A program made the translations under genes and the position numbers. This document shows, piece by piece, positions 965 through 38,380 of a DNA stretch of 64,000 nt (position 1 is the first letter of the stretch; every line of letters starts with the position of its first letter). This DNA is from Escherichia coli (GTDB taxonomy: Bacteria > Pseudomonadota > Gammaproteobacteria > Enterobacterales > Enterobacteriaceae): the NCBI RefSeq assembly GCF_041248615.1, contig NZ_CP158426.1; one strand, written 5' to 3'. Under the pieces are notes generated by a model, which saw only the letters and a list, made by a program, of their open reading frames with translations, ran no database searches and had not been told where the DNA came from.

Positions 965-1040
965 TGGCTCCTCTGACTGGACTCGAACCAGTGACATACG
1001 GATTAACAGTCCGCCGTTCTACCGACTGAACTACAGAGGA
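965..1040 (-). tRNA. asnV: tRNA-Asn (GUU anticodon)
   Basis: Reverse complement reads TCCTCTGTAGTTCAGTCGGTAGAACGGCGGACTGTTAATCCGTATGTCACTGGTTCGAGTCCAGTCAGAGGAGCCA, the canonical 76-nt enterobacterial tRNA-Asn; position between erfK and nac. Confidence 0.95.
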
Positions 1041-3373: not shown

Positions 3374-3449
3374 TGGCTCCTCTGACTGGACTCGAACCAG
3401 TGACATACGGATTAACAGTCCGCCGTTCTACCGACTGAACTACAGAGGA
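3374..3449 (-). tRNA. asnU: tRNA-Asn (GUU anticodon)
   Basis: Identical 76-nt tRNA-Asn sequence on minus strand; located between cbl and yeeO. Confidence 0.95.
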
Positions 3450-3609
3450 ATCGCTGTTGAGGCACATCTTAACGGCGAAAAATCTTTTGTCAAACCCGAT
3501 TTTTAAATTTCCCAACTGTTTGCCGTTTCTATCAACAGTTTGTTGCATTTGCAGACAATTTGTTGGCGAAAATCTTTGCAGCTTTGCTGATTCTCCCTCA
3601 TTATTTGAA

Positions 3610-5097
3610 ATGTGGTTTCACTTTCTGCAATTAAGGTCGGCTTTGAATATCTCCTCTGCTTTACGCCAGGTTGTTCACGGCACTCGCTGGCACGCTAAAC
3701 GCAAGAGCTACAAAGTGTTGTTCTGGCGCGAGATAACCCCGCTTGCTGTTCCTATCTTCATGGAGAACGCCTGTGTCCTGTTGATGGGTGTCCTGAGCAC
3801 TTTTCTGGTCAGCTGGCTGGGAAAAGATGCGATGGCCGGCGTGGGATTGGCGGACAGCTTCAATATGGTCATTATGGCATTTTTTGCGGCTATCGATCTT
3901 GGTACCACTGTCGTTGTGGCATTTAGTCTCGGTAAGCGGGATCGACGACGAGCGAGGGTGGCGACGCGGCAGTCATTGGTGATCATGACGTTGTTTGCCG
4001 TGCTGTTGGCAACGCTTATTCATCATTTTGGCGAACAAATTATTGATTTCGTTGCGGGTGATGCCACGACAGAAGTTAAAGCACTGGCGTTGACTTATCT
4101 GGAGCTGACGGTACTTAGTTATCCAGCAGCTGCCATCACTTTGATTGGTAGCGGGGCACTTCGTGGTGCAGGGAATACGAAAATACCGCTACTGATTAAC
4201 GGTAGCCTGAATATTCTTAATATTATTATTAGCGGCATATTGATTTACGGCCTTTTCTCCTGGCCGGGACTGGGATTTGTCGGGGCTGGGTTGGGGTTAA
4301 CCATTTCTCGTTATATTGGCGCAGTGGCAATTTTGTGGGTGCTGGCGATTGGTTTTAATCCTGCGCTAAGGATTTCGTTAAAGAGCTATTTTAAACCGCT
4401 GAATTTTAGCATTATCTGGGAAGTCATGGGGATTGGTATTCCAGCAAGTGTCGAATCAGTATTATTTACCAGTGGTCGGTTATTAACCCAAATGTTCGTT
4501 GCCGGGATGGGGACCAGTGTTATTGCCGGAAATTTTATCGCGTTTTCAATTGCGGCTCTTATCAACTTACCCGGAAGTGCGCTCGGCTCTGCTTCTACGA
4601 TCATTACAGGCCGAAGGTTGGGAGTAGGGCAGATAGCGCAAGCAGAGATTCAGTTGCGGCATGTGTTCTGGCTGTCCACTCTTGGATTAACGGCCATCGC
4701 CTGGCTAACGGCTCCCTTTGCCGGGGTTATGGCATCGTTTTACACCCAGGATCCACAGGTTAAACATGTCGTTGTGATTCTGATTTGGCTAAATGCTTTA
4801 TTTATGCCTATTTGGTCTGCCTCATGGGTGCTACCCGCTGGATTTAAGGGTGCTCGCGATGCACGTTACGCCATGTGGGTTTCTATGTTGAGCATGTGGG
4901 GTTGCCGGGTTGTAGTCGGTTATGTGCTGGGAATCATGCTTGGCTGGGGTGTGGTTGGTGTCTGGATGGGAATGTTTGCCGACTGGGCTGTGCGGGCCGT
5001 GCTGTTTTACTGGCGAATGGTTACTGGACGTTGGCTGTGGAAATATCCTCGATCTGAGCCGCAAAAGTGTGAAAAAAAGCCAATTGTGTCGGAATAA
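3610..5097 (+). CDS. yeeO: MATE-family efflux transporter YeeO
   Basis: ORF 3457..5097 is highly hydrophobic multi-pass membrane protein; the 5' extension overlaps tRNA asnU, so start placed at ATG 3610 (495 aa, MWFHFLQL...). Confidence 0.85.
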   Translation: MWFHFLQLRSALNISSALRQVVHGTRWHAKRKSYKVLFWREITPLAVPIFMENACVLLMGVLSTFLVSWLGKDAMAGVGLADSFNMVIMAFFAAIDLGTTVVVAFSLGKRDRRRARVATRQSLVIMTLFAVLLATLIHHFGEQIIDFVAGDATTEVKALALTYLELTVLSYPAAAITLIGSGALRGAGNTKIPLLINGSLNILNIIISGILIYGLFSWPGLGFVGAGLGLTISRYIGAVAILWVLAIGFNPALRISLKSYFKPLNFSIIWEVMGIGIPASVESVLFTSGRLLTQMFVAGMGTSVIAGNFIAFSIAALINLPGSALGSASTIITGRRLGVGQIAQAEIQLRHVFWLSTLGLTAIAWLTAPFAGVMASFYTQDPQVKHVVVILIWLNALFMPIWSASWVLPAGFKGARDARYAMWVSMLSMWGCRVVVGYVLGIMLGWGVVGVWMGMFADWAVRAVLFYWRMVTGRWLWKYPRSEPQKCEKKPIVSE

Positions 5098-5197
5098 ACG
5101 ACAAAGTGCAGATTATTTCAGCAAACGATTTCAAATTTAAAAAACAGGCTTTGACATTGTGGATGGGCATCGCTAATATTCGCCTCGTTCTCACGAT

Positions 5198-5273
5198 TCC
5201 TCTGTAGTTCAGTCGGTAGAACGGCGGACTGTTAATCCGTATGTCACTGGTTCGAGTCCAGTCAGAGGAGCCA
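5198..5273 (+). tRNA. asnW: tRNA-Asn (GUU anticodon); integration site of island 1
   Basis: Canonical 76-nt tRNA-Asn sequence on + strand, immediately followed by a P4-type integrase gene. Confidence 0.95.
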
Positions 5274-5434
5274 AATTCAAGTTTTCATGCTTATCTGTAC
5301 GTCTCTATTTGTTTACGATTCAGTAAGTTAGCGTGAAAATCCTTCCCGGTGCGTATCTGGTTTTCTCTCTGTATCGGGATAATTTGGTGGTCAGATCTGG
5401 GGTCAGTTTGGTTCGATTCTGGAGTGACCCCCAA

Positions 5435-6696
5435 ATGTCTTTAAACGATTCTAAAATCCGCAAGTTAAAACCCTCTTCCCGTCTGGTAAAACTCTCCGAC
5501 TCTCACGGTCTGTATCTGCTCGTCAATCCGGGCGGTTCACGCATCTGGTATCTCAAATATCGTTTCAACGGAAAAGAATCCAGAGTCAGTCTTGGCGCAT
5601 ACCCGCTTGTCTCACTGGCAGAAGCCAGGCAACAGCGCGACGGTATCCGTAAGTTACTGGCGCAGAATATCAACCCGGCGCAGCAGCGCATGGCGGAGAA
5701 AGCGGCCTGCTCCCCTGAAAAGTGCTTTAAGGCAGTGGCGCTGGCCTGGCACAAAACCAACAAAAAATGGTCGGCTGATTATGCCGCCCGTATTCTCGCC
5801 AGTATGGAAAACCATATCTTCCCGGCGATTGGTCATCTGCCAGTTGCCACTCTTAAAACGCAGGATTTACTGCTTTGTTGCGGGTTATCGAGGATAAAGG
5901 CTTTCTGGAAGTCGCGTCCCGAACCCGGCAGCAACTCAGCAACATCATGTGCTATGCCGTTCAGCAGGGGCTTACCGAAAGCAATCCGGCGCAGCATCTG
6001 GATGGCGTTGTCGCCTCACCCGTAAAGAATCACTACCCCGCGTTACTGCTGGAGCGGTTGCCCGAACTGCTTGGCCGCATCGGTGACTATCAGCAGGGCC
6101 GGGAGTTAACACGGCTGGCGGTGGTGCTGACGTTGCACCTGTTTATCCGTTCCAGCGAACTGCGTTTCGCCCGCTGGAGCGAGATCGATTTCAGGCACAA
6201 AATCTGGACCATCCCCGCCACCCGCGAGGCAATCGACAAAGTACGGTTTTCGGGGCGTGGCGCAAAAATACGTACCCCGCATATCGTGCCGCTCTCCCGC
6301 CAGGCGATTGCCATTCTGAAACAGATACAGGAGCTTTCCGGCCATCTGGATCTGGTGTTTCCCGGTGATCATAACCCGTACAAGCCAATGAGTGAAAACA
6401 CCACCAACCGGGCGCTACGCCTGATGGGGTATGATACGAAAACTGAAATCTGCGGGCATGGACTCAGGGCGATGGCCTGTAGCGCCCTGGTGGAGTCGGA
6501 GCTGTGGTCACGCGATACGGTGGAGCGGCAAATGAGCCACCAGGAGCGTAACAGCGTGCGGGCAGCCTATGTGCATAAAGCGGAGCATCTGGAGGCCAGA
6601 AAGGCCATGATGCAGTGGTGGTCGGATTATCTGGATGTGTGCCGCGAGGGGTATGTTGCGCCGTACATTTATGCCCGGCAGCATAAGGCAGCCTGA
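5435..6696 (+). pseudogene. P4-family tyrosine integrase, frameshifted near 5872
   Basis: N-terminal part (MSLNDSKIRKLKP...ATLKTQDLL) is in frame 2 (ORF 5333..6025); C-terminal part (LRVIEDKG...HGLRAM...Y) is in frame 1 (ORF 5875..6696); restoring one C at about 5872 (ctgcCtttg) would give a contiguous DLLPLLRVIEDKG integrase of about 420 aa. Confidence 0.8.
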
Positions 6697-6835
6697 ATCA
6701 GAAATAACGGAAATCATTAAAAATGTAAAAGCAGATCCTGATTGACCGGGATCTGCTTATTGTATTGAGAAGTATTACCATTTTTCTGTTATTATCAATC
6801 GGAAAGTATCTAAAAATATTTGGCCCCAAATAATT

Positions 6836-7260
6836 TTGGTGAAAACCAATCAATAAACCATTTATCAATAGGTAAGTACCGGAAATTATTCCAGTAGAAT
6901 ATTTTCAGGCGATTGCCTATTAATAAATACATTATTGATAGATAAGTGCCTTCTGTGATTTGTCCGCAAATCACAGAAGATGAAAACCTATCAATACGGG
7001 ATATTTTCACGGAAATACCAATTAATACTCCAGAATATCTCCTGACCATATACTCTGAAACCTGTAAGAACTGCATCAGATATTGAGAGACCATATAGAT
7101 ATAAGTCTGAAATTATTTTGTTTCCAATGATTTCAGGCGAAAACCTATCAATGCATCTGTTTTCAATAGGCAGCCACCTTCCGTGATTAACATGTTAATC
7201 ACGGAAGGTGAAAAGCTATCAATAATCGATATTTTCACGGAATTACCACTTAATACATCC
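6836..7260. repeat. AT-rich iteron-like array: 4 copies of GAAAA(C/G)C(T/A)ATCAAT plus two long palindromes
   Basis: Motif at 6841, 6981, 7140, 7209; palindrome tctgtgatttgtccgcaaatcacaga (6952..6977) and perfect palindrome ccttccgtgattaacatgttaatcacggaagg (7177..7208); repeated gatattttcacggaa(a/t)tacca blocks. Confidence 0.55.
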
Positions 7261-8033
7261 CAAAAAATGCGCCATAAAATACCGGGCAATCTTTCCTGAT
7301 ACACATTATCACTGCACCAGCTATACAGAGACAAAATAATCTGCACCAGCCCCTGTAAATCGGTTATTTGTGCCAGTGTCCCGCCGCTCTACCTGTTCAG
7401 GGTTGTGCCAGTTTCTGGCCCTTTGGTTTTCGGCCCTTTCCGGTCAGGCGCTGTTACCCTTATTGCCCCTTAACCTTTATGACCCTTTCCCTTTCTGACG
7501 CAACCAGTTTATTTTGAAATGCTCCATGACAGTCTGCACCAGACTGTATTTTCACCACAGGATAACGATCACAAAGTGCAAAAAAATAACATGAAGCACC
7601 GAAGATTGTTAATCTATATGTAGCAGGTAATGATGTCAAAAACTGTCGCAGCATTTTTTATAAAATTATGAGACATTCTGTGGGCATATAATATATGTCA
7701 CAAGATGCAGGAAAACAAAGAGAGAGTTTTCAGATATAATCCCGCGTTAGAATTAATGTGATGCCCCGGTGAATTTACATTTTAAAATTTCCCTGTCCCG
7801 TAATATCGGTAAAAACGATTGAAACACCAACTATTAATCGGGAACGTCTCGAGTGATTACAGGGTAATCACTATAATATCCCGGCAAACTATATTGGTTA
7901 AGCAGGAGAATCTGATCAGTTGATATTTATTCGTCATGCTGTAACGATATTTTCACAATATAAACCCGTTCGCCCCCTGCGCCAGATCCGGTACAGAGGG
8001 TACGATAAATCGCTGTCGTTACGCAGTAACGTA

Positions 8034-8650
8034 CTATTTTGCGACATTCATGAATTCAGTCATTCCTCCCTCCAGCGGTAGCCGTACACCTGTTTCACCC
8101 AGCGACCGCGACCGTCGCCATGACCCAGATCCGTCGCCGTCAGCGCCAGTGACTCCTTTTCGCTGAATCCCTGCGCCAGTATCCAGGACTGTCGTATAAC
8201 GGGGACGCCCGCCTTTGGTGCCAAATACCACTTTTAGCCGGGTTTCACCGCGGGAAATGGCTTTCAGCCACGTTTTCAGCGACTGTGAACTCTGTACCGC
8301 CTCCTGCGAACGCAGCCCCATCAGCCGCGCAATCTCCAGGCTGCTGCCAGCCCTGCGTCCTGAGTACGGGCTTTCTCCATCACCTGCCTGCGTCCAGCCT
8401 GTCTCAGCACGGCCCGCAACGCTGCCATTTCGTTTTGCAACGTTCGTAAACCAATATCCAGCTCCAGCCGTTCCTCAATGTAGCATTCGATATGGCGAAC
8501 CTTGATCTGCTCCACCCGCTGGATCTGGATATTCAGCGCCCGTAAATGTTCACTGAACCGTTTTGTAATATGGATACGGTCATTCACCGTTTTGAAGCTG
8601 CCGCCCGCTTTCTTCGCCAGCGCCTTCATTTCACTGCTTAATTTACTCAT
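8034..8650 (-). pseudogene. Degenerate tyrosine-recombinase (integrase) remnant
   Basis: ORF 8321..8650 resembles an integrase N-terminal SAM-like domain; the adjacent out-of-frame ORF 8034..8321 has a GTKGGRPRYTTVLD segment resembling the TGKGGK.R..P recombinase box; no intact catalytic C-terminus. Confidence 0.4.
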
Positions 8651-9566
8651 GAATCCCTCTGCAACAAAAACAAACAGTCTCCGGCGTGTGCTTTTTGGCT
8701 GCGCCAGAACGATACCTTTACGCCGGAGTGGTAGTTTGTTGAGGTTTAGGGAGTTTCAGGCTGTACGCAGTACAGACTGCCTGCGAAGCAGGAGTGTCTC
8801 CGGGGCTTCTTGCCCCCCTCGGTATCGATCTTTTTCTCCTTTACTCTTAGCTGACAGCGGCCCCAAAGGGCATGTCAGACGGCGGAAATATGGCGCAGGC
8901 CAGAACTGGCGCGGCTTGTGGCGGTGAGTTGTGCGGCGTCACTTTGCTTTTTCGCTGGCGCGACCAAAGTGACGCCTCGTCTGGTGCAGGGGGTAAACGT
9001 TACGTTTCTGGTGCAGGGTGACGGTCACGCGGCAGCAAAGCCTGACGGCAATGCAGGCCGCAGCCCGTCAATGTAAGGCGCTGGTTGTCAGCAGAAGATA
9101 AAACCCGGCAAAGCCAGAGTGTCAGCCCGTAAAGCCGGGTATCTGGTGCAGTGATGGTGTATATGTACGTCAGTCTCAGATGCAGGTATTTTTGCATCCC
9201 CGGCGTTTTCAGAGATCAACGCCGGTAAAGGATGCCATGCTGGCGAAGCCAGGCGCTTCTTTCAGACGTGAAGCGACAAAGGGACTGCCCGGAGGCAGTT
9301 TGTTGCAGGCGGGAGACTGCGCCATTATTTCTGGTGCAGGAAGGAAAAACTGTTTCCGGGTTTAAAAGATTGTTTGCTTACCTGGTGACGGAAAAACTGC
9401 CGCGCTTCGCTTGTCTTCTCCCGGCGCGCTGCCAGCAAAAGCAGGCAGCGCGCCGGGAGAGTCTGGTTTTACTGTAACAATGCGCCTGACGGTTCAGCCA
9501 TCAGGATCGGCGTTTATGCATGAGTCTTCCGGTACGGTTGCCCCGATCATCGATGTATCTGGACGG

Positions 9567-9755
9567 TCAGATAATTTCCGGTGATGTTTCCAGCGCATCC
9601 GCAATCAGTTTTTCGCCGCGCGGCCTGGAGCGGGTCAGCGCATTTGCCAGCGTGGAAGACGCCAGCCCGGCCCTGCGGGAAACCTCAGCCAGCGATGTTC
9701 CCTTTTTTCTCAGGCCCGCGATAATATCGGCGGGGTGCCAGTCGGGTTGCATCAT
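9567..9755 (-). CDS. Ner/Nlp-like small HTH DNA-binding protein
   Basis: 62-aa ORF with WHPADIIAGLRKKGTSLAEVSRRAGLASSTLANAL, closely resembling the Ner/Nlp family. Confidence 0.6.
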   Translation of the reverse strand: MMQPDWHPADIIAGLRKKGTSLAEVSRRAGLASSTLANALTRSRPRGEKLIADALETSPEII

Positions 9756-10213
9756 GCTGGCCTCCCGTCGATAACCTGTATGCCGTCAGCAGTACATATC
9801 CAGCGTGGGGCGTTCAGATTGGCGGCAAAATACCAGACCAGTTCGCACAGCAGCCCGGTCAGCGTGGTTTCGGTTTCCGGCAGCAGCACGTGGCCGTTCA
9901 GTATCTGCGTCAGCGCCAGGCAGTAATCGCAGAGTGATCCTGCATCAGGCTCAAAACCGGGTGAAACATCGGGAAGATCATTCGTAATAAACCCGTCAAT
10001 CAGATGTGGTGGGATCGGCTCGTTCAGCGTGGGCCGCAACAGTGCAAGACAGGTATTAAGCCTGCCACAGAGCGCCGTTTTCAGCGCCGGATCGCAGCAC
10101 TCGATGAGCGTTGTGGCAACGCGATCGCAGTACTCCGCCAGATCGGTGAAATCGGTAGCGGCACTAAAGGGAACAGCAAGTAAATTGCATTCAGAGGTGA
10201 GAGTAGTCGCCAT
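9752..10213 (-). CDS. Hypothetical protein (153 aa), 4-bp overlap with downstream Ner-like gene
   Basis: ORF only; overlapping stop/start with the Ner-like gene suggests an operon; no recognised domain. Confidence 0.35.
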   Translation of the reverse strand: MATTLTSECNLLAVPFSAATDFTDLAEYCDRVATTLIECCDPALKTALCGRLNTCLALLRPTLNEPIPPHLIDGFITNDLPDVSPGFEPDAGSLCDYCLALTQILNGHVLLPETETTLTGLLCELVWYFAANLNAPRWICTADGIQVIDGRPA

Positions 10214-10734
10214 AAGGCCGTCTACAGTGAGTGATAAATATTCCAGCCACTGGAGAGGCTAATCTCACGGGTGGTGGAACCGGACGGGGTTAGCCTTACC
10301 AGCCTCACTGACACTGGCGCGTCTTTCGACGCCCCCGCCCGATCCCGCCATTGAGATGAGACCGTGCGCGACACACAAATATTGTATCGTCAGTGAGGAT
10401 CTTCAGGAGGCTAATCCCGACGCCTGATTTTGCAGGCGCGGCGCAACAATACAATGTTCGGTAATTTTCAGCAAGAGGTTTAGCGGAAGCAGACGCACAG
10501 GAAAATACAATCACGCGATAAATATTAAATACAATTATATTTATATAAAATATATATTGAGCAATATGCAGACACTTTCCAGTAAATATCCTGTCAGTTA
10601 ATTCGTCCCGTTGATATCAGTCAAAAAAATAAATGTAAAAAGAGCGTATTTCGTTTCATACAGTAACGTTATTTATCATTTTGTCCGGTGTCGCCAGCAT
10701 CAGGCCAGATGAACCATAAAAAAGGATATCAGCG

Positions 10735-13700
10735 ATGAGCGGAAAACCGGCAGCACGTCAGGGCGATGCCACAATGAAAGGTGGCCCGATAGTCCAGGGG
10801 TCGGCAGGCGTGAGGATTGGCGCGCCAACCGGCGTGGCCTGTTCAGTGTGCCCCGGCGGATTCACTTCCGGTAACCCGGTGAATCCGCTGCTCGGTGCAA
10901 AAGTACAGCCCGGCGAAACCGATTTCGCGCTGCCCGGCCCGTTACCGTTCGTGCTCTCCCGCACCTACAGCAGCTACCGGACGAAAACCCCTGCGCCCGT
11001 CGGTATCTTCGGTCCTGGCTGGAAAGCACCCTTTGATATCCGCTTACAGATACGCGATAACGAACTGATACTCAATGATAACGGTGGCAGAAGCATTCAT
11101 TTTGAGCACCTGTTTCCCGGTGAGGATGGCTTCAGCCGCAGCGAATTATTCTGGCTGGTGCGCGGCGGCGTGGCGAAACTGAATGAAAGTCACCGTCTTG
11201 CCCCACTCTGGCAGGCTCTGCCGGAAGAACTCCGCATGAGTCCGCATATTTATCTGGCGACGAACAGTCCGCAGGGGCCGTGGTGGATACTCGGCTGGAG
11301 TGAGCGGGTACCGGGTGTGGATGAGGTGCTGCCTGCGCCATTGCCGCCGTACCGGGTGCTGACCGGCCTGGTGGACCGCTTCGGGCGTACCCTGACCTTC
11401 CGGCGTGAGGCAGTTGGCGAATTTACCGGGGAAATCACCGGCGTGACCGATGGCGCAGGCCGTCAGTTCCGCCTGGTGCTGACCACGCAGGCGCAGCGGG
11501 CGGAAGAGGCCCAGCAGCAGGCGGTTGCAGCCGGAGCAAAACGACCAGATATCCCGGTTTCATTGCCGGACTATACAGAATATGGCCGGGATAACGGCAT
11601 CCGCCTGTCAGCGGTGTGGCTGACGCATGACCCGGAATACCCGGAGAATTTACCTGCCGCGCCACTGGTGCGCTACGACTGGACGCCACGCGGTGAACTG
11701 GCGGCGGTGTATGACCGCAGCGGTACGCAGATGCGCCACTTTACTTACGATGATAAATACCGGGGCCGGATGGTGGCGCACCGTTACGCAGGCAGGCCGG
11801 AGATGCGTTACCGCTACGACGACATCGGGCGCGTGACGGAACAACGTAATCCGGCGGGTTTAAGCTACACCTATCAGTATGAGAAAAACCGCATCATCAT
11901 CACCGACAGCCTGAACCGGTGCGAGGTGCTGCATACAGAAGGCGAAGCCGGGCTGAAACGGGTGGTGAAAAAAGAGCACGCTGACGACAGCGTCACACAG
12001 AGTCAGTTCGATTCCATTGGCCGCCTTCAGTCACAGACGGATGCGGCAGGCCGGACGACAGAATACAGTCCGAATGTGGTGACGGGTCTCGTCACACGCA
12101 TCACCACGCCGGACGGCAGGAAATCGGAATTTTACTATAACAACCAGAACCAGTTAACCTCAGCATCCGGGCCTGACGGACTGGAAATGCGCAGGAAATA
12201 TGATGAGTACGGGCGTCTGACGCAGGAAACCGCTCGCAACGGCGATATCACCCGCTACAGTTATGATAATCCGCACAGTGAATTACCCTCTGCAACTGAA
12301 GATGCGACGGGTAGCCGCAAGCAGATGACGTGGAGCCGTTACGGGCAGTTACTGACTTTCACCGACTGCTCAGGCTACCAGACCCGTTATGAATACGACC
12401 GCTTTGGTCAGATGACGGCGGTCCACCGTGAGGAAGGTGTCAGTCTTTACCGCAGCTATGACAGCCGTGGTCAGTTAATCTCGGTGAAAGATACGCAGGG
12501 CCGTGAAACGCAGTATGAGTACAACGGTGCAGGCGACCTGACCGCCATTATCACGCCAGACGACAACAGAAGCGAGACACAGTACGATGCGTGGGGAAAG
12601 GCCGTCAGTACCACGCAGGGCGGGCTGACGCGCAGCATGGAATACGACGTTGCCGGACGTGTCATCAGCCTGACCAACGAGAACGGCTGTCACAGCGACT
12701 TCAGTTACGATGTGCTCGACCGCCTGATACAGCAGAGCGGCTTTGACGGGCGGACGCAACGTTACCGTTACGACCTGACCGGGAAACTCACGCAGAACGA
12801 GGATGAGGGGCTTGTCACCCTCTGGCACTACGACGAATCGGACCGTATCACACACCGCACGGTGAACGGCGAACCGGCAGAGCAGTGGCGGTATAACGCC
12901 CACGGCTGGCTGAAAGAAATCAGCCACCTGAGCGAAGGTCACCGGGTGGCGGTGCATTACGGCTATAACCGTAAGGGACGTCTCACCGGCGAGCGCCAGA
13001 CGGTGCATAACCCGGAGACGGGGGAACTGCTCTGGCTGCATGAGACAAAACACGCCTACAACGAACAGGGTCTGGCAAACCGCGTCACGCCGGACTGCCT
13101 GCCTGCTGTGGAGTGGCTGACCTACGGCAGCGGTTACCTGGCGGGGATGAAGCTGGGCGACACGCCGCTGCTGGAGTACGCGCGCGACCGCCTGCACAGA
13201 GAAACGGTGCGCAGCTTTGGCAGCATGGCAGGCAGTAATGCCGCATACGAACTGACCAGCACATACACCCCCGCAGGCCAGTTACAGAGCCAGCACCTGA
13301 ACAGCCTGGTGTATGACCGTGACTATGGGTGGAATGACAACGGCGACCTGGTGCGCATCAGCGGCCCGCGACAGACGCGGGAATACGGCTACAGCGCCAC
13401 GGGCAGGCTGGCGAGTGTGCGCACCCTCGCACCGGACCTGGACATCCGCATCCCGTATGCCACGGACCCGGCGGGCAACCGGCTGCCGGACCCGGAGCTG
13501 CACCCGGACAGTACACTCACAGTGTGGCCGGATAACCGCATCGCGGAGGATGCGCACTATGTCTACCGCCACGATGAATACGGCAGGCTGACGGAGAAGA
13601 CGGACCGCATCCCGGCGGGTGTGATACGGACGGACGACGAGCGGACCCACCACTACCACTACGACAGCCAGCACCGCCTGGTGTTCTACACGCGGATACA

Positions 13701-14916
13701 GCATGGAGAGCCACTGGTCGAGAGCCGCTACCTCTACGACCCGCTGGGACGGCGAATGGCGAAAAGGGTATGGCGGCGGGAGCGTGACCTGACGGGGTGG
13801 ATGTCGCTGTCGCGTAAACCGGAGGAGACATGGTACGGGTGGGACGGCGACAGGCTGACGACGGTGCAGACTGACACCACGCGTATCCAGACGGTGTACC
13901 AGCCGGGAAGCTTCACGCCGCTCATCAGAATCGAAACAGACGTGACCGAACTGGAGAAAGCGCAGCGGCGAAGCCTGGCGGAGAAGTTACAGCAGGAAGG
14001 GAGTAAAGATGGTCACGGCGTGGTGTTCCCGCCTGAACTGGTGCGGCTGCTGGACAGGCTGGAGGGGGAAATCCGGGCAGACCGTGTGAGTGACGAAAGC
14101 CGGGCGTGGCTTGCGCAGTGCGGGCTGACGGTGGAGCGGCTGGCGGCACAGATCGAGCCAGTTTATTTGCCTGAGCGAAAAATACATCTTTATCACTGCG
14201 ACCACCGGGGACTGCCGCTGGCGCTTATCAGTACTGAAGGTGCAACGGAATGGCGTGGGGAGTATGACGAGTGGGGGAATCAGCTTAATGAGGAGAACCC
14301 GCATCATCTGTTCCAGCCATACCGCCTGCCGGGGCAGCAGTACGATGATGAATCGGGGCTGTGCTATAATCGTTATCGTTACTACGAGCCGTTACAAGGG
14401 AGGTATATTACACAGGACCCGATTGGGTTAAATGGGGGGTGGAATTTATATAAATATCCGCTGAATCCAATAAATTATGCAGATCCTCTTGGCTTAGCCG
14501 TAGATATAAACCACTTCCCAGTCAACGAAGACATACGAAATTATGCAGAGAAAGTTTGGAATAATCCTAATATCATTACAATTGGAACACATGGTGATCC
14601 TCAATCAGTATATGATGAAAATTATAATAAGATAGATGTCAAGACATTAGCTAATGAGGTTCGAAATCATCCTAAATTTAAACCTGGAATGTCAGTAAGA
14701 CTGTTATCCTGTAATACAGGAAAAGGAAATAACTCTTTTGCACAGCAATTGGCAGATGAACTAGGTGTGAGAGTCTATGCTCCTGACCAATATGACTGGT
14801 ACTATTCAAATGGTAAGGTAGAGCCTTGGGGAGGATTCTATGATGCAAACAATCAATTGCAAATGGACACGAATCAGCCTGGACATGAGTTTACATTCAA
14901 GCGAAGGAAACCATAG
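10735..14916 (+). CDS. rhs: Rhs family polymorphic toxin (RHS/YD-repeat core plus variable C-terminal toxin tip)
   Basis: 1393-aa ORF starting [11 protein letters not shown] as in E. coli Rhs proteins; many YD repeats; core ends at ...[13 protein letters not shown]...YADPLGL (about 14497), followed by an AT-rich 139-aa tip. Confidence 0.9.
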
Positions 14917-14972
14917 GTATGAGGTATTTTCTCTTTATATTTATAACAATCCCCCTTATCTCTGGAGGTCAT

Positions 14973-15521
14973 ATGAGTAATGATAGCGAAAAGATAATAT
15001 CAACATATTCGCTCAATTTTTTATCACCAGATGATGTGAGGAAAGAAGAACTTAAGGCATCACAAGGTGATAGTGATGCTGCATTTAAATTGTACAAATA
15101 TTACCTTTTTTGCGAGCCAAAATCATACAGAAAACAGCACGAATGGTTAATAATATCGGCAAATAATGGAAATGCTATAGCTCAATATAACTTATCAAGA
15201 GAACTTGAGTCAGAAGGAAAAGTAGATGAATCAATACAATGGCTGAAAAAATCAGCGGAACATGGTAATAATTATGCACAATATCAGATGTCAAAATATT
15301 TATTAAAAATAGGTGATATTAGAGGATCGGAATATTATCTAAACTTATCTGCGGATAACGGATGTGTATTTGCAATAAAAGATATTATCAAAAATATGAT
15401 GGATAGTGGAAGGTACGATGACGCCCTCATTTGGGTTGAAAAATTGAAAAAATTGTATCCTGACACAAATACCGAACTTTACATACAAAAAATAACGCAG
15501 AAAAAAAAGCAATCCAAATAA
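14973..15521 (+). CDS. Putative Rhs immunity protein with Sel1-like repeats
   Basis: Immediately downstream of the rhs tip, AT-rich like the tip; GGAGG Shine-Dalgarno before ATG 14973; repeats GNAIAQYNL / GNNYAQYQM resemble Sel1/TPR-like motifs. Confidence 0.55.
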   Translation: MSNDSEKIISTYSLNFLSPDDVRKEELKASQGDSDAAFKLYKYYLFCEPKSYRKQHEWLIISANNGNAIAQYNLSRELESEGKVDESIQWLKKSAEHGNNYAQYQMSKYLLKIGDIRGSEYYLNLSADNGCVFAIKDIIKNMMDSGRYDDALIWVEKLKKLYPDTNTELYIQKITQKKKQSK

Positions 15522-15809
15522 TAATTATATATAATTACTCGCACAGAGTTACAGTATTGCAAGAAATATATCTAGCATATAAAGTCGCCGCCAGTAAAGA
15601 TAAAGTACTGTGTAATCCTTCCTCCCATATAGGGGTAAAAACTTAGCATCCAGTGCCCTCGACTTAATTTTTAGTATTTTCTCTGTGAAGTGACACTTCG
15701 TAGGATTCAGTTCATGTTTACCAGAAAAAAGGTGGTCATTCTGGTGGTCTTGACAATCTCGATTTTTTGTTTTAGCTTTCCAATCAGCCAATTAATGGCT
15801 ACGGCGATC

Positions 15810-15825
15810 CCAGTCAGAGGAGCCA
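15810..15825 (+). repeat. 16-bp direct repeat of tRNA-Asn 3' end (distal att boundary of asnW island)
   Basis: ccagtcagaggagcca is identical to the last 16 nt of asnW (5258..5273); preceded by tacggcgatc, which is also found at the asnT-side boundary (revcomp of 30131..30140). Confidence 0.75.
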
Positions 15826-16276
15826 AATTTTAGTTTTGAGACATCTCTATGAGTCTCAAGACAGTTAAAAAATAAAAATTATTTTTACCCGGTTACCTTG
15901 TAAAAAAGTGACCGGGTTTTTTGATTTCTGTGTTTCGTGCGCTTAATCGAGTCTCACGCTTCAGTGAGCAAATTGCCCCCCAACAGACATCACGATTCGC
16001 AAGGTCAAAAACTTCGTTCCGTGAAGTACCGTACAAAGGTATAGAGAAAAATACCTTATGCTGGATGTCGCTGTCGCGTTTTTATCGGGAAACTATGCGT
16101 AATTGCCACTTTGCCTTCTGTAATCAGAAAAAGAAGAACTGGAATTTTAATAAATATTATTTCTCTGGGAATGGGGATTTTTTATAATCAATATGACGAG
16201 TTGAACATTATATTTTTATAATGATTATATGAGATTAAAGAAATCTGCCATAAAGACAGATTTCTTTAAAATATAA

Positions 16277-21836: not shown

Positions 21837-29802
<7,966 letters not shown>

Positions 29803-30114: not shown

Positions 30115-30130
30115 TGGCTCCTCTGACTGG
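30115..30130 (-). repeat. tRNA-Asn 3'-end remnant (16 bp): att boundary of island 2 at the asnT site
   Basis: tggctcctctgactgg is the reverse complement of the tRNA-Asn 3' end; identity stops after 16 nt; adjacent island sequence is homologous to the island-1 end. Confidence 0.75.
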
Positions 30131-30479
30131 GATCGCCGTAGCCAATAACTGGCTAATAAATAAGCTAAACCTGAATTTCCTTTCTGTCAAGACCACCAAA
30201 CAGACCACCTTAAGTTATACATGTCATTCTGACCTGCTCTCAGTTGATTAGTACACCCTGAAATTAGTAATGTCATTCATATGACCCTGACCCCAAACCC
30301 TGCTCCATTCAGAAACAGAATTCCGGCATGATACATACTCCCCCTGAACCGAGGTGGTACTGATGAAAAAAATCTCGATTCACCGAAGAGCATATTGTGT
30401 TTGCCTTGACGCAGAAGTTACCAGCATGACTCAACTTCAGCCGACTCAACCACTATCCCAAACCTCTAGGATCAGAAAC

Positions 30480-32389: not shown

Positions 32390-33442
32390 ATGGGAATTAG
32401 TGTTCGAGTCTTGCAAGCAAATCATGGTGATTGTTTCTTAGTTAGTTATAAGAGCTCAGATAGTGTTTACAACTTGCTAATTGATGGTGGTAATAGCGCC
32501 ACATTTATGTTTGGGGCTCAAGGGCGCTACAGTGGTGAGCTTAAATGTGTACTCGATGATTTGAAAAAAGAAGGTCAGAAAATTGACTTGGTTATCTTAA
32601 CCCATATAGATGATGATCATATCGGTGGTTTGCTTAGGGCTTTTGAAACACCAGGTTATCTATGCCAAATGGCTTCTTCTATCTGGTTTAATTCTTCAAG
32701 ATTTATCACCAAACATTTTAAGGTTGATGAAATTTCAGACAATGATGTCTGTCTTCAAAGTAACTCAACGCAGACAAGTGCTAGGCAAGGGAAGAAACTG
32801 GAAAACTTACTTGATGAAATCAATTGCGAACGGCAACCCATAGTTATTGCGGGGCAGAAGTTTACAAGGGGTCCGTTCACATTCACGATCTTATCCCCTG
32901 AAGAAGATAATCTACGTAGCCTTCTTCATAAGTGGCCAGATGAGCCAGATCCGGTTACGACATCCGGTGCTTCAAGGGATTATGGAATGAAATTTGAGGA
33001 TATTTTGTCTAATGATAAATTCCAGAGTGATCAATCTGTTTATAATGGTAGCTCAATTGCTTTCATCCTTGAAGCTGATGGTAAGGCTATGCTCTTTTTG
33101 GGCGATTCACATGATGAAAATATTGTCCGTAATTTACGATCTCTTGGTTTTAATGAAGGTAACAAGCTCAAACTCGACCTCGTGAAAATTTCTCATCATG
33201 GTAGCCAGTATAATACTAGCCCTGAATTTTTGTCGCTCATAGATGCGCAAAACTTCATTATATCCACTAATGGGAGTAAGCACGGACTTCCTGATAAGAG
33301 AACTATTGCACGGATTTTATCTTCAGGAGAAGGCAAAATCGGCTTCAATTATTCGCACATTATCCAGGAGATGCTTCACGAAAATGAGGTTCCATTGTAC
33401 TCTTCTCGCCTGGTAGCATTAAATGGAGAAATTAGGCTATAA
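32390..33442 (+). CDS. MBL-fold metallo-hydrolase (first gene of candidate defence operon)
   Basis: Motifs HGDCFLV...IDGG, LVILTHIDDDHIGG and KISHHGS are typical of the metallo-beta-lactamase fold; AGGAAA RBS before ATG 32390; stop overlaps next gene. Confidence 0.7.
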   Translation: MGISVRVLQANHGDCFLVSYKSSDSVYNLLIDGGNSATFMFGAQGRYSGELKCVLDDLKKEGQKIDLVILTHIDDDHIGGLLRAFETPGYLCQMASSIWFNSSRFITKHFKVDEISDNDVCLQSNSTQTSARQGKKLENLLDEINCERQPIVIAGQKFTRGPFTFTILSPEEDNLRSLLHKWPDEPDPVTTSGASRDYGMKFEDILSNDKFQSDQSVYNGSSIAFILEADGKAMLFLGDSHDENIVRNLRSLGFNEGNKLKLDLVKISHHGSQYNTSPEFLSLIDAQNFIISTNGSKHGLPDKRTIARILSSGEGKIGFNYSHIIQEMLHENEVPLYSSRLVALNGEIRL

Positions 33443-34727
33443 AATGACCGCTTCAAATTTGATGGCTTCTAACGCAGTGATCGTGAACGAGGGCAGTGGT
33501 GTTCTTGTTAATGCGATGACTCAAGATTATTCATACGTACTCACAGCAAAACATGTGTTAGCGAAATCAGGTAGTCAAAATATCGTTACTAATCAATATG
33601 GTAACAGTCTTAGAGTGCTTGATGTATTGGTGGGTCAGGAAGAGCATTGCGACTGTGCTGTAATCAAAATTGAATATGTACCAACTGTTGCTCAGCAGTC
33701 CTTCCCTGCAATAGCATTACCCAATTCGGCTTTGCTAAAGTTTGTTGGTTTTCCGGGAACCGAGAGACTAAGCGCTACCCCGCTGAAAATCTATGATGGG
33801 CATGTAACAGATGTAAGGGAGGGGCTGATTAGCTTCACGATAGAAGGCAGTCCCTCAAAAACCGCAATCGATGGAATGTCTGGCGGTGGAATGTATTACA
33901 TAGTTAATGAACATCCCCTCCTTGTTGGTGTAGAATTTGGGATGGACAGTATTCGTCAAGATCTACAATATGGACGTATACAATGTAAAAGTTTAATTGT
34001 TTTTGAAGAGATAATTAATTTAAACAGTGCTGCTCCAATGGTTCCCGCTTATTTGGAGTGTTTTTCACGCTTAAAAGAATATATCTTCGATTTTAATGTT
34101 GTTGATAAAAATAGAGTTCTGAATCTGAAAAACGCATTAAATATTTTTGCAGATGAACTTATAGACAAAGGTATGCCACCACCATTTGAATTAATGTCCA
34201 AATACAAAACTGATTTGTTAGTAGGTCCATATCAAGTTGACGATGTTAAAAATAAAGAATTATGGGTTGCATATTTTGAATTTCTGATAATTTGCGCAAT
34301 TCTTGATAATGTAAGTATTGCCAATAGTTCTTATATAGAAAGTTTAGAGCGGCGTAGGAGAATTCTTTATACTCCGGATGGAAGTAATTGGGTCGGAAAG
34401 CTTGATGTAATCTTAAAAGTTGCTCGAAAGTTATTAGATAAAGATGGCATAGTAATTGTGGCATCTCCAGAAAATGGAGCCGAATTATTACCGGATGATT
34501 TTGAAGTCGATAGGGTTATAAGGAATATTGCGCGAATCGCTAATTCAGGTCCACTTGCTCCTATCGATCAAGTTGAAAAAGAGATGTATAAGAGTTTTGT
34601 ATTAACGCATCTTGAAGGGCTGAGAAAAAAATGTGTTATAAACAAAGAGAGAATGTATGCAGAAGTTGAAGCTGGCTTAGACCAACTTCAGACGTTTAAG
34701 GAAAGCTTTAATGAATTTATTAAATAA
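33423..34727 (+). CDS. Trypsin-like (S1-type) serine protease with C-terminal domain of unknown function (LmuA-like effector?)
   Basis: Candidate catalytic triad in order His (VLTAKHV), Asp (DCAVIKIE), Ser (DGMSGGGMYY); about 230 further residues without recognised motif; start may be 33423 or 33444; overlaps both neighbours. Confidence 0.7.
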   Translation: MEKLGYKMTASNLMASNAVIVNEGSGVLVNAMTQDYSYVLTAKHVLAKSGSQNIVTNQYGNSLRVLDVLVGQEEHCDCAVIKIEYVPTVAQQSFPAIALPNSALLKFVGFPGTERLSATPLKIYDGHVTDVREGLISFTIEGSPSKTAIDGMSGGGMYYIVNEHPLLVGVEFGMDSIRQDLQYGRIQCKSLIVFEEIINLNSAAPMVPAYLECFSRLKEYIFDFNVVDKNRVLNLKNALNIFADELIDKGMPPPFELMSKYKTDLLVGPYQVDDVKNKELWVAYFEFLIICAILDNVSIANSSYIESLERRRRILYTPDGSNWVGKLDVILKVARKLLDKDGIVIVASPENGAELLPDDFEVDRVIRNIARIANSGPLAPIDQVEKEMYKSFVLTHLEGLRKKCVINKERMYAEVEAGLDQLQTFKESFNEFIK

Positions 34728-35262
34728 AGAATTTGATTTGGAATTTCTTAAATCTAGATTTTCTGATGCAGATTTCTATTTTTTTGTTTCTAATGATGAC
34801 TCATCTTATATTTCATGCGTAGCATGCTATTGTGAGAGCGCTAATTACGTGGTTGCGAATTGGACAGCGATTCAGAATTATTTATCTGCTTACTACCAAC
34901 CGAAGGATGAATTAGCTCTTTGGAATATATATTTAGTTTTCTTTTGTTCCGAAAAATTACCGATTTGGGATAAGTACCTTATAGATAATGATAAGTATTC
35001 TGTCAGAAAATTAATTATTGACGGGTTAACTACTCTGCCAAGTATTTCCGAAACTGTAACTTTTCTGAACAATCATCTGCTAGGCGCAGACCTAGAATTA
35101 ACTGAAATAGAGGAGAAGAAGGAGATAGAGTTATCATTAATTGAGTATATAAGTGGAACTCCTTTAGATTCAAAGGTTGAGTCGAGAGATGAGCGTATGA
35201 GCAGAATTGATAAAATTATTAATCTAGTGAGTTCAAATAAAAATGAAAATAAAAAAAGTTGA
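34711..35262 (+). CDS. Small protein (183 aa) of unknown function, translationally coupled (middle component?)
   Basis: ORF overlaps upstream gene by 17 nt and downstream gene by 20 nt; AT-rich; no recognised motif. Confidence 0.5.
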   Translation: MNLLNKEFDLEFLKSRFSDADFYFFVSNDDSSYISCVACYCESANYVVANWTAIQNYLSAYYQPKDELALWNIYLVFFCSEKLPIWDKYLIDNDKYSVRKLIIDGLTTLPSISETVTFLNNHLLGADLELTEIEEKKEIELSLIEYISGTPLDSKVESRDERMSRIDKIINLVSSNKNENKKS

Positions 35263-38200
35263 AATAGAAGGCTTTCGAGCATACAGATTCAAGGAAGATG
35301 GTACTTTCGATTTTACAAATAAAGATGATACGCCATCCAATTTTGTAGCGATCTATGCACCCAATGGCTTTGGAAAAAGTTCATTCTATGATGCGGTTGA
35401 ATGGGCTATTACTCATAATTTAGATAGATTTGCGGGTGAATATAATAAAAAAAATTATGAGCAAGCTGCCAGGAGCACGAAAGAGGACGGTGTTGCACAA
35501 AAAATACTACGTAATAAAGATGTACCAGACAATATTCCTACTCGTGTAACAGTTTTCACTACTTTACCAACTCCATTCGAACAAAGTTTAGGAACAGTTC
35601 GTTCTGATTCTAGAGATATAAGAATCGGCGAGAATAAAAATAAAATCAATGGCTATTTTAGAAAAGTGGTTCTTAGTCAAGATGAAATAGACCGTTTTTT
35701 AAAAGAAGCAAAGCCGCAAGATCGTTATAAGATGTTTATGGAGAGTTTTGGAGGTGAATGGGAAAAGGCGAGACAAGAGCTAACTATACTATTGAATGAC
35801 AATAAGGCGGTTTTGTTAAATCTCGAAAAAAACAAAAATGAACTTCAGGAACAACTAGATCAGCCTGTTGATGCGTCAACATTCATACAATTTAATAAAA
35901 TAGCATCTGAACTTGTAGCAGAAGGTGAAAGTTTACCATTAGTAGATGAAACAACTATAGTTAATACACAGCATGAGCTTTTGGAAAAAATAATCACAAG
36001 AAGTCACGAAATAAATTTTTCCTTAAACAAGAAAAAAATATTGAGAGATTCGATTTCTGAGTATATTTTAAAATTTCCTGATATCAGTTTTCGTACAACC
36101 CAGATTATCGAGAAAAAGAATAGACTAGAAAAAATAAATAAAGGGATAGAAGATGTCGGTCGTTATAAGACATTTCAGTCTACTCTTGAAAAACTGACTA
36201 TCGAAAAGAAAAAGATAAGTCAGAGCTTAAATTTTATAGAAGAATTAGATGGTTTATCCCAAGAGTTTTTAAGCTTGGAATTTAACTTGGAATCAGCTCG
36301 AAAGAAACATAGAGAGATTTCATATAATTATGAAAATGAAAAAACTCTCCTTGATAATTTATTCCAAACAAGAAACCAAAATGATGCTGATTTATCTTCA
36401 ATTGACAAGCGATGCTTATCTATACGTTCTACGTTAGAAAACGCTACGGTTACTTATTCTAATATATCTAATATACAAAATAAAATTTTAAATATAGTTT
36501 CTACGCAAACAGAATTAGAGCACAAACTTAATCAAGTTAGATCCGAATACCAAAAAAACAAATCCGAATTAAACAAAGTATCAGATTTAACAATAACCGC
36601 CAAATCATTACTTTCATCAGACTTAAGTCTAATTGATTTATCTTCAGATTTATTAAAAGAACTAAACAACTTATCGCAAGAACTAAATATATTGGTCCTA
36701 CATGATCAATCAATTCATAACACACAAGAATCTCTTTCTGCACAAATGGGAGTTCACGAACGTCTAATTGCATCGGGCCTTGAGTACTTAAGTTTATGGC
36801 CGACTAATATATGTCCTTTATGTCACAAGCCGCATGACTCTGAGTCCTCTCTTAGAGAACAAGTAACAAATACTGACGTAATATCCATGCTTAGTAAAGA
36901 GAATGCAGCTAAGCTCGAGATATCCTCAAAACGGCGGTCAGAGTTAAATGGCAAGATAGAATCCATCGTACAGAAAGCCCTTGAAATTAAAATGAGTAAA
37001 CTTGAGGTATTAAGTAAAAAGGTCAATCAACAAGGAAATGAGATACATCGAGAAGAACAGCACTATACAGCTCTTTTAGCAGAAAAACAGTCTGTCCAAA
37101 ATCAGTTAAACGAGTTGCAGAAGGCTGTAGCTGGACTAACTAAAGATGAATTATTAGCTCGCTTAGATGCTGAACTTAAAGAATTAGAGGCCAAGAAAAA
37201 TGAAGTGATAAAAAACAAGCTGACCTTGACGAAAAATATTAACGTTAAAAGAACGTTGATTACAGAGTTAAGTGGGGCGATCAATTTACTTAATACGCAA
37301 ATTCATGAAATGATGTCATCATCTAACTATTTAAAAACAAAAGCTTACTCTGAAGAAAATGGCTTGTCATCGGAGTTTTTGAAAGAACATTATGATGATA
37401 AACGCCATTTTTACCTTAAAAATATAAATGGACTCAATTTTGAGATTAATAATATTACCAGCCAATTAAATGATCTTCAGAAAGCTATGATAGCCGATGA
37501 AATGTGGCTGGATTATGAAGAAATGATTTCTGAAAAAGAGAATTTCGAGGATTATATTTCTAAATCAGAAGCGGTTTTACAATCTTATTCATCATTATTA
37601 AAGCAGCATTTTGAACTACCAAAATATGAATCTTTAGTTGAATTGAAAGATTTCCTGATAAGCTCACTTGATAAAGAAACTAGGCTTTATAATGGTCTAG
37701 AGGAACGGCTTGGAAAATATAATTTATTATCAGAACTTTTGAAAACAGCAGAGTCGTTTGTAAAAAGTATTAAGTTGCAGAATGATATTAATGAAACCTT
37801 AGGTCTTATAGAAATAAGAAAAGAAGTTGATTTAGCTCTGACTAAGGAACGAAATCAAGTAATAGAGGAACTTAGAAACTTGATAAAATCTTTCTTTTAT
37901 GAGGAACTCATTAATTCTATTTATAAGAGAATAGATCCACATCCATCACTTAAGAAAGTGGTGTTTCGCCCAGATTTTGACTCATCAGATAAACCTGGTC
38001 TTAATATAGTTGTCAGTGATGAAAAAGGTGATATGGTATCTCCAATATTATTCTTTAGTGCAGCGCAATTAAATATTCTAAGCCTTAGTGTCTTTTTAGC
38101 AAGTGCTTTGCATGCAAAAGATGATAATGGAAATGTAATTGATGTGATTATGATTGATGATCCAATTCAATCAATGGATTCAATTAATATCCTATCCACA

Positions 38201-38380
38201 ATTGATCTTCTTAGAAGTATTACCGTTAGATTCAACAAACAAATAATAATATCAACACATGACGACAATTTCTTTGGCTTGCTCCAACGTAAAATCCCTT
38301 CGGAAATATTGGGTGCCAAGTTTCTTAAATTGGAGAAATTTGGGGTTGTAGTGCCTGTTGATGATTTAAATAATACATGA
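35243..38380 (+). CDS. Rad50/SbcC/SMC-like ABC ATPase with central CxxC zinc hook (LmuB-like?)
   Basis: N-terminal Walker A (VAIYAPNGFGKSSFYD), Q-loop (VLSQDEI), long coiled-coil middle with CPLC at residues 524-527 of 1045 (nt 36812..36823), C-terminal signature-like FSAAQ, Walker B VIMIDDP, D-loop SMD and H-loop ISTHD. Confidence 0.8.
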   Translation: MKIKKVEIEGFRAYRFKEDGTFDFTNKDDTPSNFVAIYAPNGFGKSSFYDAVEWAITHNLDRFAGEYNKKNYEQAARSTKEDGVAQKILRNKDVPDNIPTRVTVFTTLPTPFEQSLGTVRSDSRDIRIGENKNKINGYFRKVVLSQDEIDRFLKEAKPQDRYKMFMESFGGEWEKARQELTILLNDNKAVLLNLEKNKNELQEQLDQPVDASTFIQFNKIASELVAEGESLPLVDETTIVNTQHELLEKIITRSHEINFSLNKKKILRDSISEYILKFPDISFRTTQIIEKKNRLEKINKGIEDVGRYKTFQSTLEKLTIEKKKISQSLNFIEELDGLSQEFLSLEFNLESARKKHREISYNYENEKTLLDNLFQTRNQNDADLSSIDKRCLSIRSTLENATVTYSNISNIQNKILNIVSTQTELEHKLNQVRSEYQKNKSELNKVSDLTITAKSLLSSDLSLIDLSSDLLKELNNLSQELNILVLHDQSIHNTQESLSAQMGVHERLIASGLEYLSLWPTNICPLCHKPHDSESSLREQVTNTDVISMLSKENAAKLEISSKRRSELNGKIESIVQKALEIKMSKLEVLSKKVNQQGNEIHREEQHYTALLAEKQSVQNQLNELQKAVAGLTKDELLARLDAELKELEAKKNEVIKNKLTLTKNINVKRTLITELSGAINLLNTQIHEMMSSSNYLKTKAYSEENGLSSEFLKEHYDDKRHFYLKNINGLNFEINNITSQLNDLQKAMIADEMWLDYEEMISEKENFEDYISKSEAVLQSYSSLLKQHFELPKYESLVELKDFLISSLDKETRLYNGLEERLGKYNLLSELLKTAESFVKSIKLQNDINETLGLIEIRKEVDLALTKERNQVIEELRNLIKSFFYEELINSIYKRIDPHPSLKKVVFRPDFDSSDKPGLNIVVSDEKGDMVSPILFFSAAQLNILSLSVFLASALHAKDDNGNVIDVIMIDDPIQSMDSINILSTIDLLRSITVRFNKQIIISTHDDNFFGLLQRKIPSEILGAKFLKLEKFGVVVPVDDLNNT

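Follow-up and report, generated by a model that had tools for sequence, protein, structure and literature searches.

The asnW locus and its island

The window, that is, the whole stretch of 64,000 nucleotides of Escherichia coli DNA analysed here, is 100% identical to positions 2051672-2115671 of the chromosome of E. coli NRZ14408 (NZ_LT599825.1). Its left end carries ldtA, a tRNA-Asn gene (965-1040, minus strand), nac, cbl, a second tRNA-Asn gene (3374-3449, minus strand), yeeO and a third tRNA-Asn gene on the plus strand. The order is thus asnV-nac-cbl-asnU-yeeO-asnW, and a cluster of asnV, asnU and asnW with yeeO and cbl has been described (PMC8209727). The third tRNA gene was identified as asnW because of its synteny, as it lies between yeeO on one side and the island and yeeN on the other.

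An island of 10,556 bp (5274-15829) is inserted at the 3' end of asnW. It is bounded by two identical 20-bp direct repeats, a pair for which 0 matches are expected by chance, and the left repeat takes in the final 16 nt of asnW and the 4 nt that follow. The features of the island are collected in Table 1. They comprise a P4-family integrase gene, a second recombinase gene, a winged-HTH gene, a hypothetical gene and, as cargo, a gene for an Rhs core protein followed by one for a TPR/Sel1-like protein. A 52-aa ORF is also present between the second recombinase and the HTH gene. From its position directly downstream of rhs, the TPR/Sel1-like protein is a putative immunity or partner protein. Because of its location at asnW, we first expected the island to be the pks (colibactin) island. 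This candidate was rejected, as the island contains no giant PKS/NRPS ORFs, measures just 10.6 kb and has an Rhs cargo. Our literature search on Rhs islands at asn tRNA genes returned only general papers on the asn-tRNA islands pks and HPI, and a paper on Rhs evolution drew no link between Rhs and integrases.

The GC content of the island is 51.6%, against 47-48% in its flanks, and is heterogeneous within the island, from 38% in 6697-8059 to 58% in rhs. The first of these segments is a 1.36-kb AT-rich stretch between the two recombinase genes, without any annotated gene. A 131-nt direct repeat, whose copies (6898-7028 and 7126-7256) are 73% identical, and a 41-nt imperfect palindrome (6922-7007) lie in it and are candidate arm-type or regulatory sites. 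Within the same stretch, segment 6756-7523 is far more divergent than its flanks in strain Z142-2, which suggests a recombination patch. Outside the island, a yeeJ-like gene for an Ig-domain adhesin (21837-29802, minus strand) is annotated as frameshifted in this strain.

Table 1. Features of the asnW island, in window coordinates
Feature	Position	Strand	Basis or remark
tRNA-Asn(GTT), asnW	5198..5273	+	ARAGORN; RefSeq annotation and gene order
Left direct repeat (attL core), CCAGTCAGAGGAGCCAAATT	5258..5277	+	Pattern search, sequence comparison
P4-family tyrosine integrase pseudogene	5435..6696	+	Pfam, similarity to P4 Int, PGAP 'frameshifted'
Product predicted for the mutant gene	5435..6025	+	Translation: 144 native residues and 52 out-of-frame residues, then stop
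Orphaned frame-1 segment: remaining core-binding domain and catalytic domain	5854..6696	+	Translation, motifs, PF00589
Lesion: one C deleted	5868..5869 (between)	+	Alignment to intact and other 1263-nt alleles
Second recombinase pseudogene (PF12834 + PF12835 type)	8060..8650	-	Alignment to the intact 885-nt gene of 2014C-3075; Pfam
Winged-HTH gene (PF13693, HTH_35), truncated	9567..9755	-	W63 to stop, TGG to TGA at 9567-9569
Hypothetical 153-aa gene, no Pfam match	9752..10213	-	PGAP, Pfam
Rhs core protein, intact, 1393 aa (DUF6531, RHS repeats, RHS core, variable C-terminus); cargo	10735..14916	+	Pfam, PGAP
TPR/Sel1-like protein	14973..15521	+	PGAP; TPR matches weak, below gathering score
Right direct repeat (attR core), identical 20 bp	15810..15829	+	Just before yeeN

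The integrase gene and its frameshift

The integrase pseudogene is 1262 nt long, while intact alleles have 1263 nt and encode 420 aa, the length already proposed in the first-pass annotation. An N-terminal arm-type DNA-binding domain is present (PF13356, E = 1.9e-25, residues 3-87), and the first 81 residues match the 'CP4-like integrase' of PDB entry 3jtz (E = 2.9e-35). The core-binding domain PF22022 is also present but split: the frame-2 piece matches profile positions 1-49, and the frame-1 piece positions 52-95. The frame-1 piece contains the catalytic domain PF00589 (E = 7.4e-17). Its set of catalytic residues, assigned by motif rather than by structure, is complete: R239 (IRSSEL), K278 (GAKIR), H342 and R345 (HGLRA), H369 (SHQERN) and Y379 (AAYVH), in the numbering of the intact protein. 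Once repaired, the protein shares 49.5% identity with phage P4 Int at 98% coverage (E = 1e-126). A search of NCBIfam was uninformative, returning only the domain model PRK09692 below threshold (231 bits against a cut-off of 434). According to this domain architecture and similarity, the label of P4-type integrase is correct. The uninterrupted ORF expected of a P4-family tyrosine integrase is lacking, due to the 1-bp deletion at codon 145, and judged by its sequence the gene is a pseudogene member of that family.

The frame-2 ORF runs from the ATG at 5435 to a stop at 6023-6025, while the frame-1 remainder is open from 5854 to a stop at 6694-6696 and has no ATG before 5947. Both these ORFs and the distribution of PF22022 over the two pieces bear out the switch from frame 2 to frame 1 that had been noticed from the sequence. 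The exact position of the lesion was another matter. A 420-codon ORF is opened by adding a single base anywhere between 5854 and at least 5884, where testing ended, and thus an open ORF cannot by itself locate the lesion. We therefore rely on the alignment with six 1263-nt relatives, three of them with intact ORFs (strain 1190, at asnW; 2014C-3075 and O145:H28 12E115, at asnT). All six reference alignments place a single gap between 5868 and 5869, and this placement is unique. The ancestral reading is GAT TTC ACT, where TTC is codon 145 of 420, against GAT TT- ACT in the window, that is, GATTT[C]ACTGC; at the lesion site the window has GATTTACT, and the C-containing form is GATTTCACT.

Restoring the C at this point yields a 420-aa ORF whose sole stop is the terminal one. 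The ancestral peptide is DFTALLRVIEDKG and not DLLPLL; the repaired protein reads ...KTQDFTALLRVIEDKG... and matches the intact proteins there, whereas the repair proposed earlier would give ...DLLPLLRVIEDKG. That repair, the insertion of a C at 5873 (ctgctttg to ctgcctttg), does open a 420-codon ORF, but the alignment does not support it as the ancestral state: it lies 4 nt downstream of the real gap and introduces three wrong residues, LLP for FTA. The supposed short C run likewise did not hold, since the deleted C was a lone base between TTT and A, and no homopolymer of five or more bases occurs in 5801-6030.

The 144 native residues of the predicted product correspond to the arm-binding domain and half of the core-binding domain. 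As solved core-binding domains (PDB 2kkv and 2kj9) match integrase residues ~95-202, a deletion in codon 145 cuts this domain, and it is predicted to sever the DNA-binding N-terminus from the catalytic domain.

The two frames could also be read as a case of recoding, in which a full-length integrase is produced by -1 ribosomal frameshifting, or in which the fragments, or the arm-binding fragment alone, keep a function such as regulating or blocking excision. The frames overlap (5854-6025), the catalytic residues are all retained, and the lesion creates the sequence T_TTA; slippage by -1 at this point would produce the repaired protein with the single change F145L. However, a slippery heptamer of the form X_XXY_YYZ is absent from the overlap (5851-6025 searched), and P4 Int and all other relatives, near or distant, are encoded by single ORFs. 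The existence of near-identical intact alleles marks the frameshift as derived by mutation rather than conserved. Moreover, the neighbouring mobility genes are broken too, and a conserved arginine, R173, was later lost in this strain. Recoding or retained function of the fragments is thus very improbable. A programmed frameshift or transcriptional slippage was rejected, there being neither heptamer nor homopolymer, while a rare spontaneous -1 slip at T_TTA could still provide trace integrase activity.

Distribution of the deletion and decay of the mobility module

Of 5426 complete E. coli genomes, 49 contain the exact frameshifted 81-mer (5829-5909) and 22 the matching intact 82-mer; only ~477 have an integrase gene with an identity of at least 90% to that of the window. 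We sampled seven carriers of the frameshift: NRZ14408, 362 (Spain), Z142-2 (China), CFSAN018748 (Denmark), N3, O139:H1 W13-16 (from a French wild boar) and Br_167 (Brazil). These strains differ in country, host and yeeO/cbl protein alleles. In 7/7 the copy lies at asnW, downstream of yeeO-asnW, and in 7/7 it is annotated by PGAP as 'frameshifted'. Compared with the 1190-type intact 82-mer, every frameshift record listed shows the gap plus one mismatch at 5842 (A5842), a constant combination that fits a single historical event. Strain 1190 also has this island at asnW, and there the integrase (WP_000055678.1) is intact; its allele is 99.4% identical to that of the window, from which it differs by 6 SNPs and the C. 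Strain H19, considered as an intact close allele on account of a 1602-base match, was discarded: the additional base of H19 falls beyond the gene, which does not differ from that of the window.

It had also been suggested that the frameshift could be a sequencing error, in which case the real genome would contain the extra C and the integrase would be intact. The source is indeed a single assembly, and, of the five strains compared, NRZ14408 alone has a further 1-bp deletion, at ~8340 in the second recombinase, which could be a strain-specific mutation or an assembly error of this kind. Against such an error in the integrase, the identical deletion is present in those 49 complete genomes, which were assembled independently and come from a wide range of laboratories, hosts and countries. 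It is linked to A5842 among the records listed and to two other island lesions in the four copies aligned, and its site, TTT followed by A, is not a long homopolymer. We regard an assembly error as extremely improbable and, with the frameshift annotation of all seven sampled copies, as effectively excluded.

The with-C and without-C states occur in near-identical alleles at the same locus, as would be expected if the integrase were switched on and off by slipped-strand mispairing. Nevertheless, the deleted C is a single base between TTT and A without a repeat tract, and the two states are split by the linked 5842 SNP in every record listed, as well as by other fixed lesions in the copies aligned over the whole island. 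The linked SNP and the fixed lesions point to one historical event instead of repeated switching, and phase variation is extremely improbable. Consequently, we consider it very likely that the lesion is a genuine, inherited 1-bp deletion, predicted to abolish integrase function, and that the integrase is a pseudogene in a decaying asnW Rhs island. The frameshift is ordinary rather than novel, being already annotated by RefSeq/PGAP, and the early claim that a P4-type integrase adjoining asnW is broken by a single-base frameshift is supported. The comparison with intact homologues that had been called for agrees: intact alleles keep the C.

Lesions are not confined to the integrase. The second recombinase has a 194-bp deletion near 8180, common to the window and strain 1190, and a 99-bp deletion near 8388, present in all four aligned frameshift copies and absent from strain 1190. 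The HTH gene encodes 84 aa in its intact form (strain 1190); position 9567 is T in all four aligned frameshift copies and C in strain 1190. In 2014C-3075, where the island lies at asnT, both recombinases are intact. This type of island is found at asnW in the window and in strain 1190, so that its location varies among strains. In strain 2014C-3307 (locus 3546-6881), a related intact integrase lies by a tRNA-Asn gene, with yeeO inverted relative to the window. This corresponds to an inversion of the asnW-yeeO-asnU segment, as reported for pks-positive strains, with the island at the other asn gene.

In its integrase, the frameshift lineage has acquired two further non-synonymous changes, P17L and R173C, of which R173C affects the conserved NIMRYAV motif. 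Comparisons of intact alleles gave 50/13 and 44/16 synonymous/non-synonymous differences, an excess of synonymous changes that indicates purifying selection on the integrase before the lesion. The substitutions that followed the frameshift are too few for relaxed selection to show statistically.

Probable loss of mobility, and related islands

On this basis, our preferred reading is that codon 145 (TTC) of the island's P4-family integrase lost its C and that this loss was inherited vertically. Translation from the ATG would yield the arm-binding domain and half of the core-binding domain, followed by 52 off-frame codons and the stop, and the catalytic domain keeps all its motif residues yet sits in the other frame without a proper start. 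In this lineage of the island, the mobility and regulatory module is decaying as a whole, through the deletions in the second recombinase and the nonsense codon in the HTH gene, while the Rhs cargo is kept. Retention of cargo with decay of mobility genes is the usual pattern of island fixation. The integrase pseudogene and the decay of the module thus suggest that the island no longer excises by its own integrase and is becoming fixed as a chromosomal Rhs locus; we infer from the sequence that integrase activity and excision have been lost.

Immobilisation had been put forward as a possible consequence of the frameshift. The evidence is best read as a loss of autonomous mobility, since the aligned frameshift copies are also defective in two more genes of the recombination and regulation module. 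Full immobilisation is a stronger claim, given that both repeats are intact and that the same chromosome has a paralogous integrase. This intact integrase (WP_172408808.1), encoded by an element at asnT, has 72% amino acid identity to the asnW integrase and conserves the catalytic motifs. With intact direct repeats and an intact asnT paralogue, excision in trans is conceivable, and the island may be mobilisable in that way.

The asnT element spans ~51 kb: from its distal att repeat at window positions 30115-30136 (minus strand) it extends past the end of the window to the asnT tRNA gene, at ~2133602 of the record. Its distal repeat is the third asn att repeat of the window, and the element is integrative and probably conjugative. 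Its PGAP-annotated genes include VirB/Trb type IV secretion, MobC, a coupling protein, UbiD/UbiX decarboxylases and glycosyltransferases/glycosylhydrolases; an 'ABC-three component system' with an AAA ATPase is found at 33423-38380. The right end of the asnW island (15797-15829) and the distal end of the asnT element (30115-30148) share 13 bases, GGCTACGGCGATC, directly outside the 20-bp repeat, which suggests that both have related attP regions.

The frameshifted allele might still not be dead, either by yielding the F145L protein through low-level slippage or because a stable 144-residue arm-binding fragment acts as a dominant inhibitor of excision. Such a fragment might occupy the arm sites, blocking excision also by the integrase of the asnT element. 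If true, either route would actively lock the Rhs island, and this could explain the presence of the allele in 49 genomes; we give this proposal only a slim chance.

Loss of the asnW integrase has a parallel in the asnT integrases. Sampled copies, ~95% identical, carry an independent nonsense mutation of Q177 (CAG to TAG, locus coordinates 4529-4531). The exact 81-mer with this stop is found in 265/5426 complete genomes, ATCC 8739 among them. As Q177stop is independent of the loss of the C, integrase loss appears to be recurrent. From the exact matches, the majority of the copies that complete E. coli genomes have of this integrase are predicted pseudogenes, with at least two independent lesions.

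Thus, the asnW Rhs island of this lineage would have lost its own integrase, a textbook route to domesticated genomic islands. The frameshift has little importance beyond annotation hygiene, and the corrected position (between 5868 and 5869), the intact ancestor-type allele of strain 1190 and the linked lesions are useful for excision tests or as a lineage marker.

The closest relatives of this island show the same organization. Strains 1190 and 2014C-3075 have a gene order like that of the window: integrase, second recombinase, small ORF, HTH, hypothetical and Rhs. In the stretch examined of O145:H28 12E115 only the integrase, second recombinase, HTH and hypothetical genes are found, with a HigA antitoxin gene between them. 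The alleles of these three strains keep the C and encode 420-aa proteins; that of the window does not. A further group of ~2130 genomes, ST131 and ATCC 25922 backgrounds included, contains a ~72%-identical integrase gene, whose nucleotide identity to the asnW integrase is far from allelic. We take these to be, probably, the integrases of HPI and pks.

Among known systems, the integrase resembles those of phage P4 and the CP4 type in its PF13356, PF22022 and PF00589 architecture, and the island resembles P4/CP4-type tRNA islands, with its integrase gene immediately following a tRNA gene and the tRNA 3' end repeated directly at the opposite boundary. P4 targets a tRNA-Leu site. Unlike P4 integrase, the asnW copy is a pseudogene, with a 1-bp deletion at codon 145, and its target is a tRNA-Asn gene. 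The island is also similar to the pks (asnW/asnU/asnV) and HPI (asnT) islands, which share the same hotspot, a P4-like integrase and repeats of ~17-20 bp of the asn tRNA 3' end. Those islands have been found at different asn genes, and the HPI of E. coli is described as immobilised, without its right repeat (PMC8209727). The asnW island differs from both in its cargo, an Rhs toxin instead of colibactin or yersiniabactin genes. It would resemble the immobilised E. coli HPI of the literature in having lost its mobility, but the damage is of another kind: the HPI lost a repeat, whereas the asnW island was hit by a point lesion in its integrase gene and kept both repeats.
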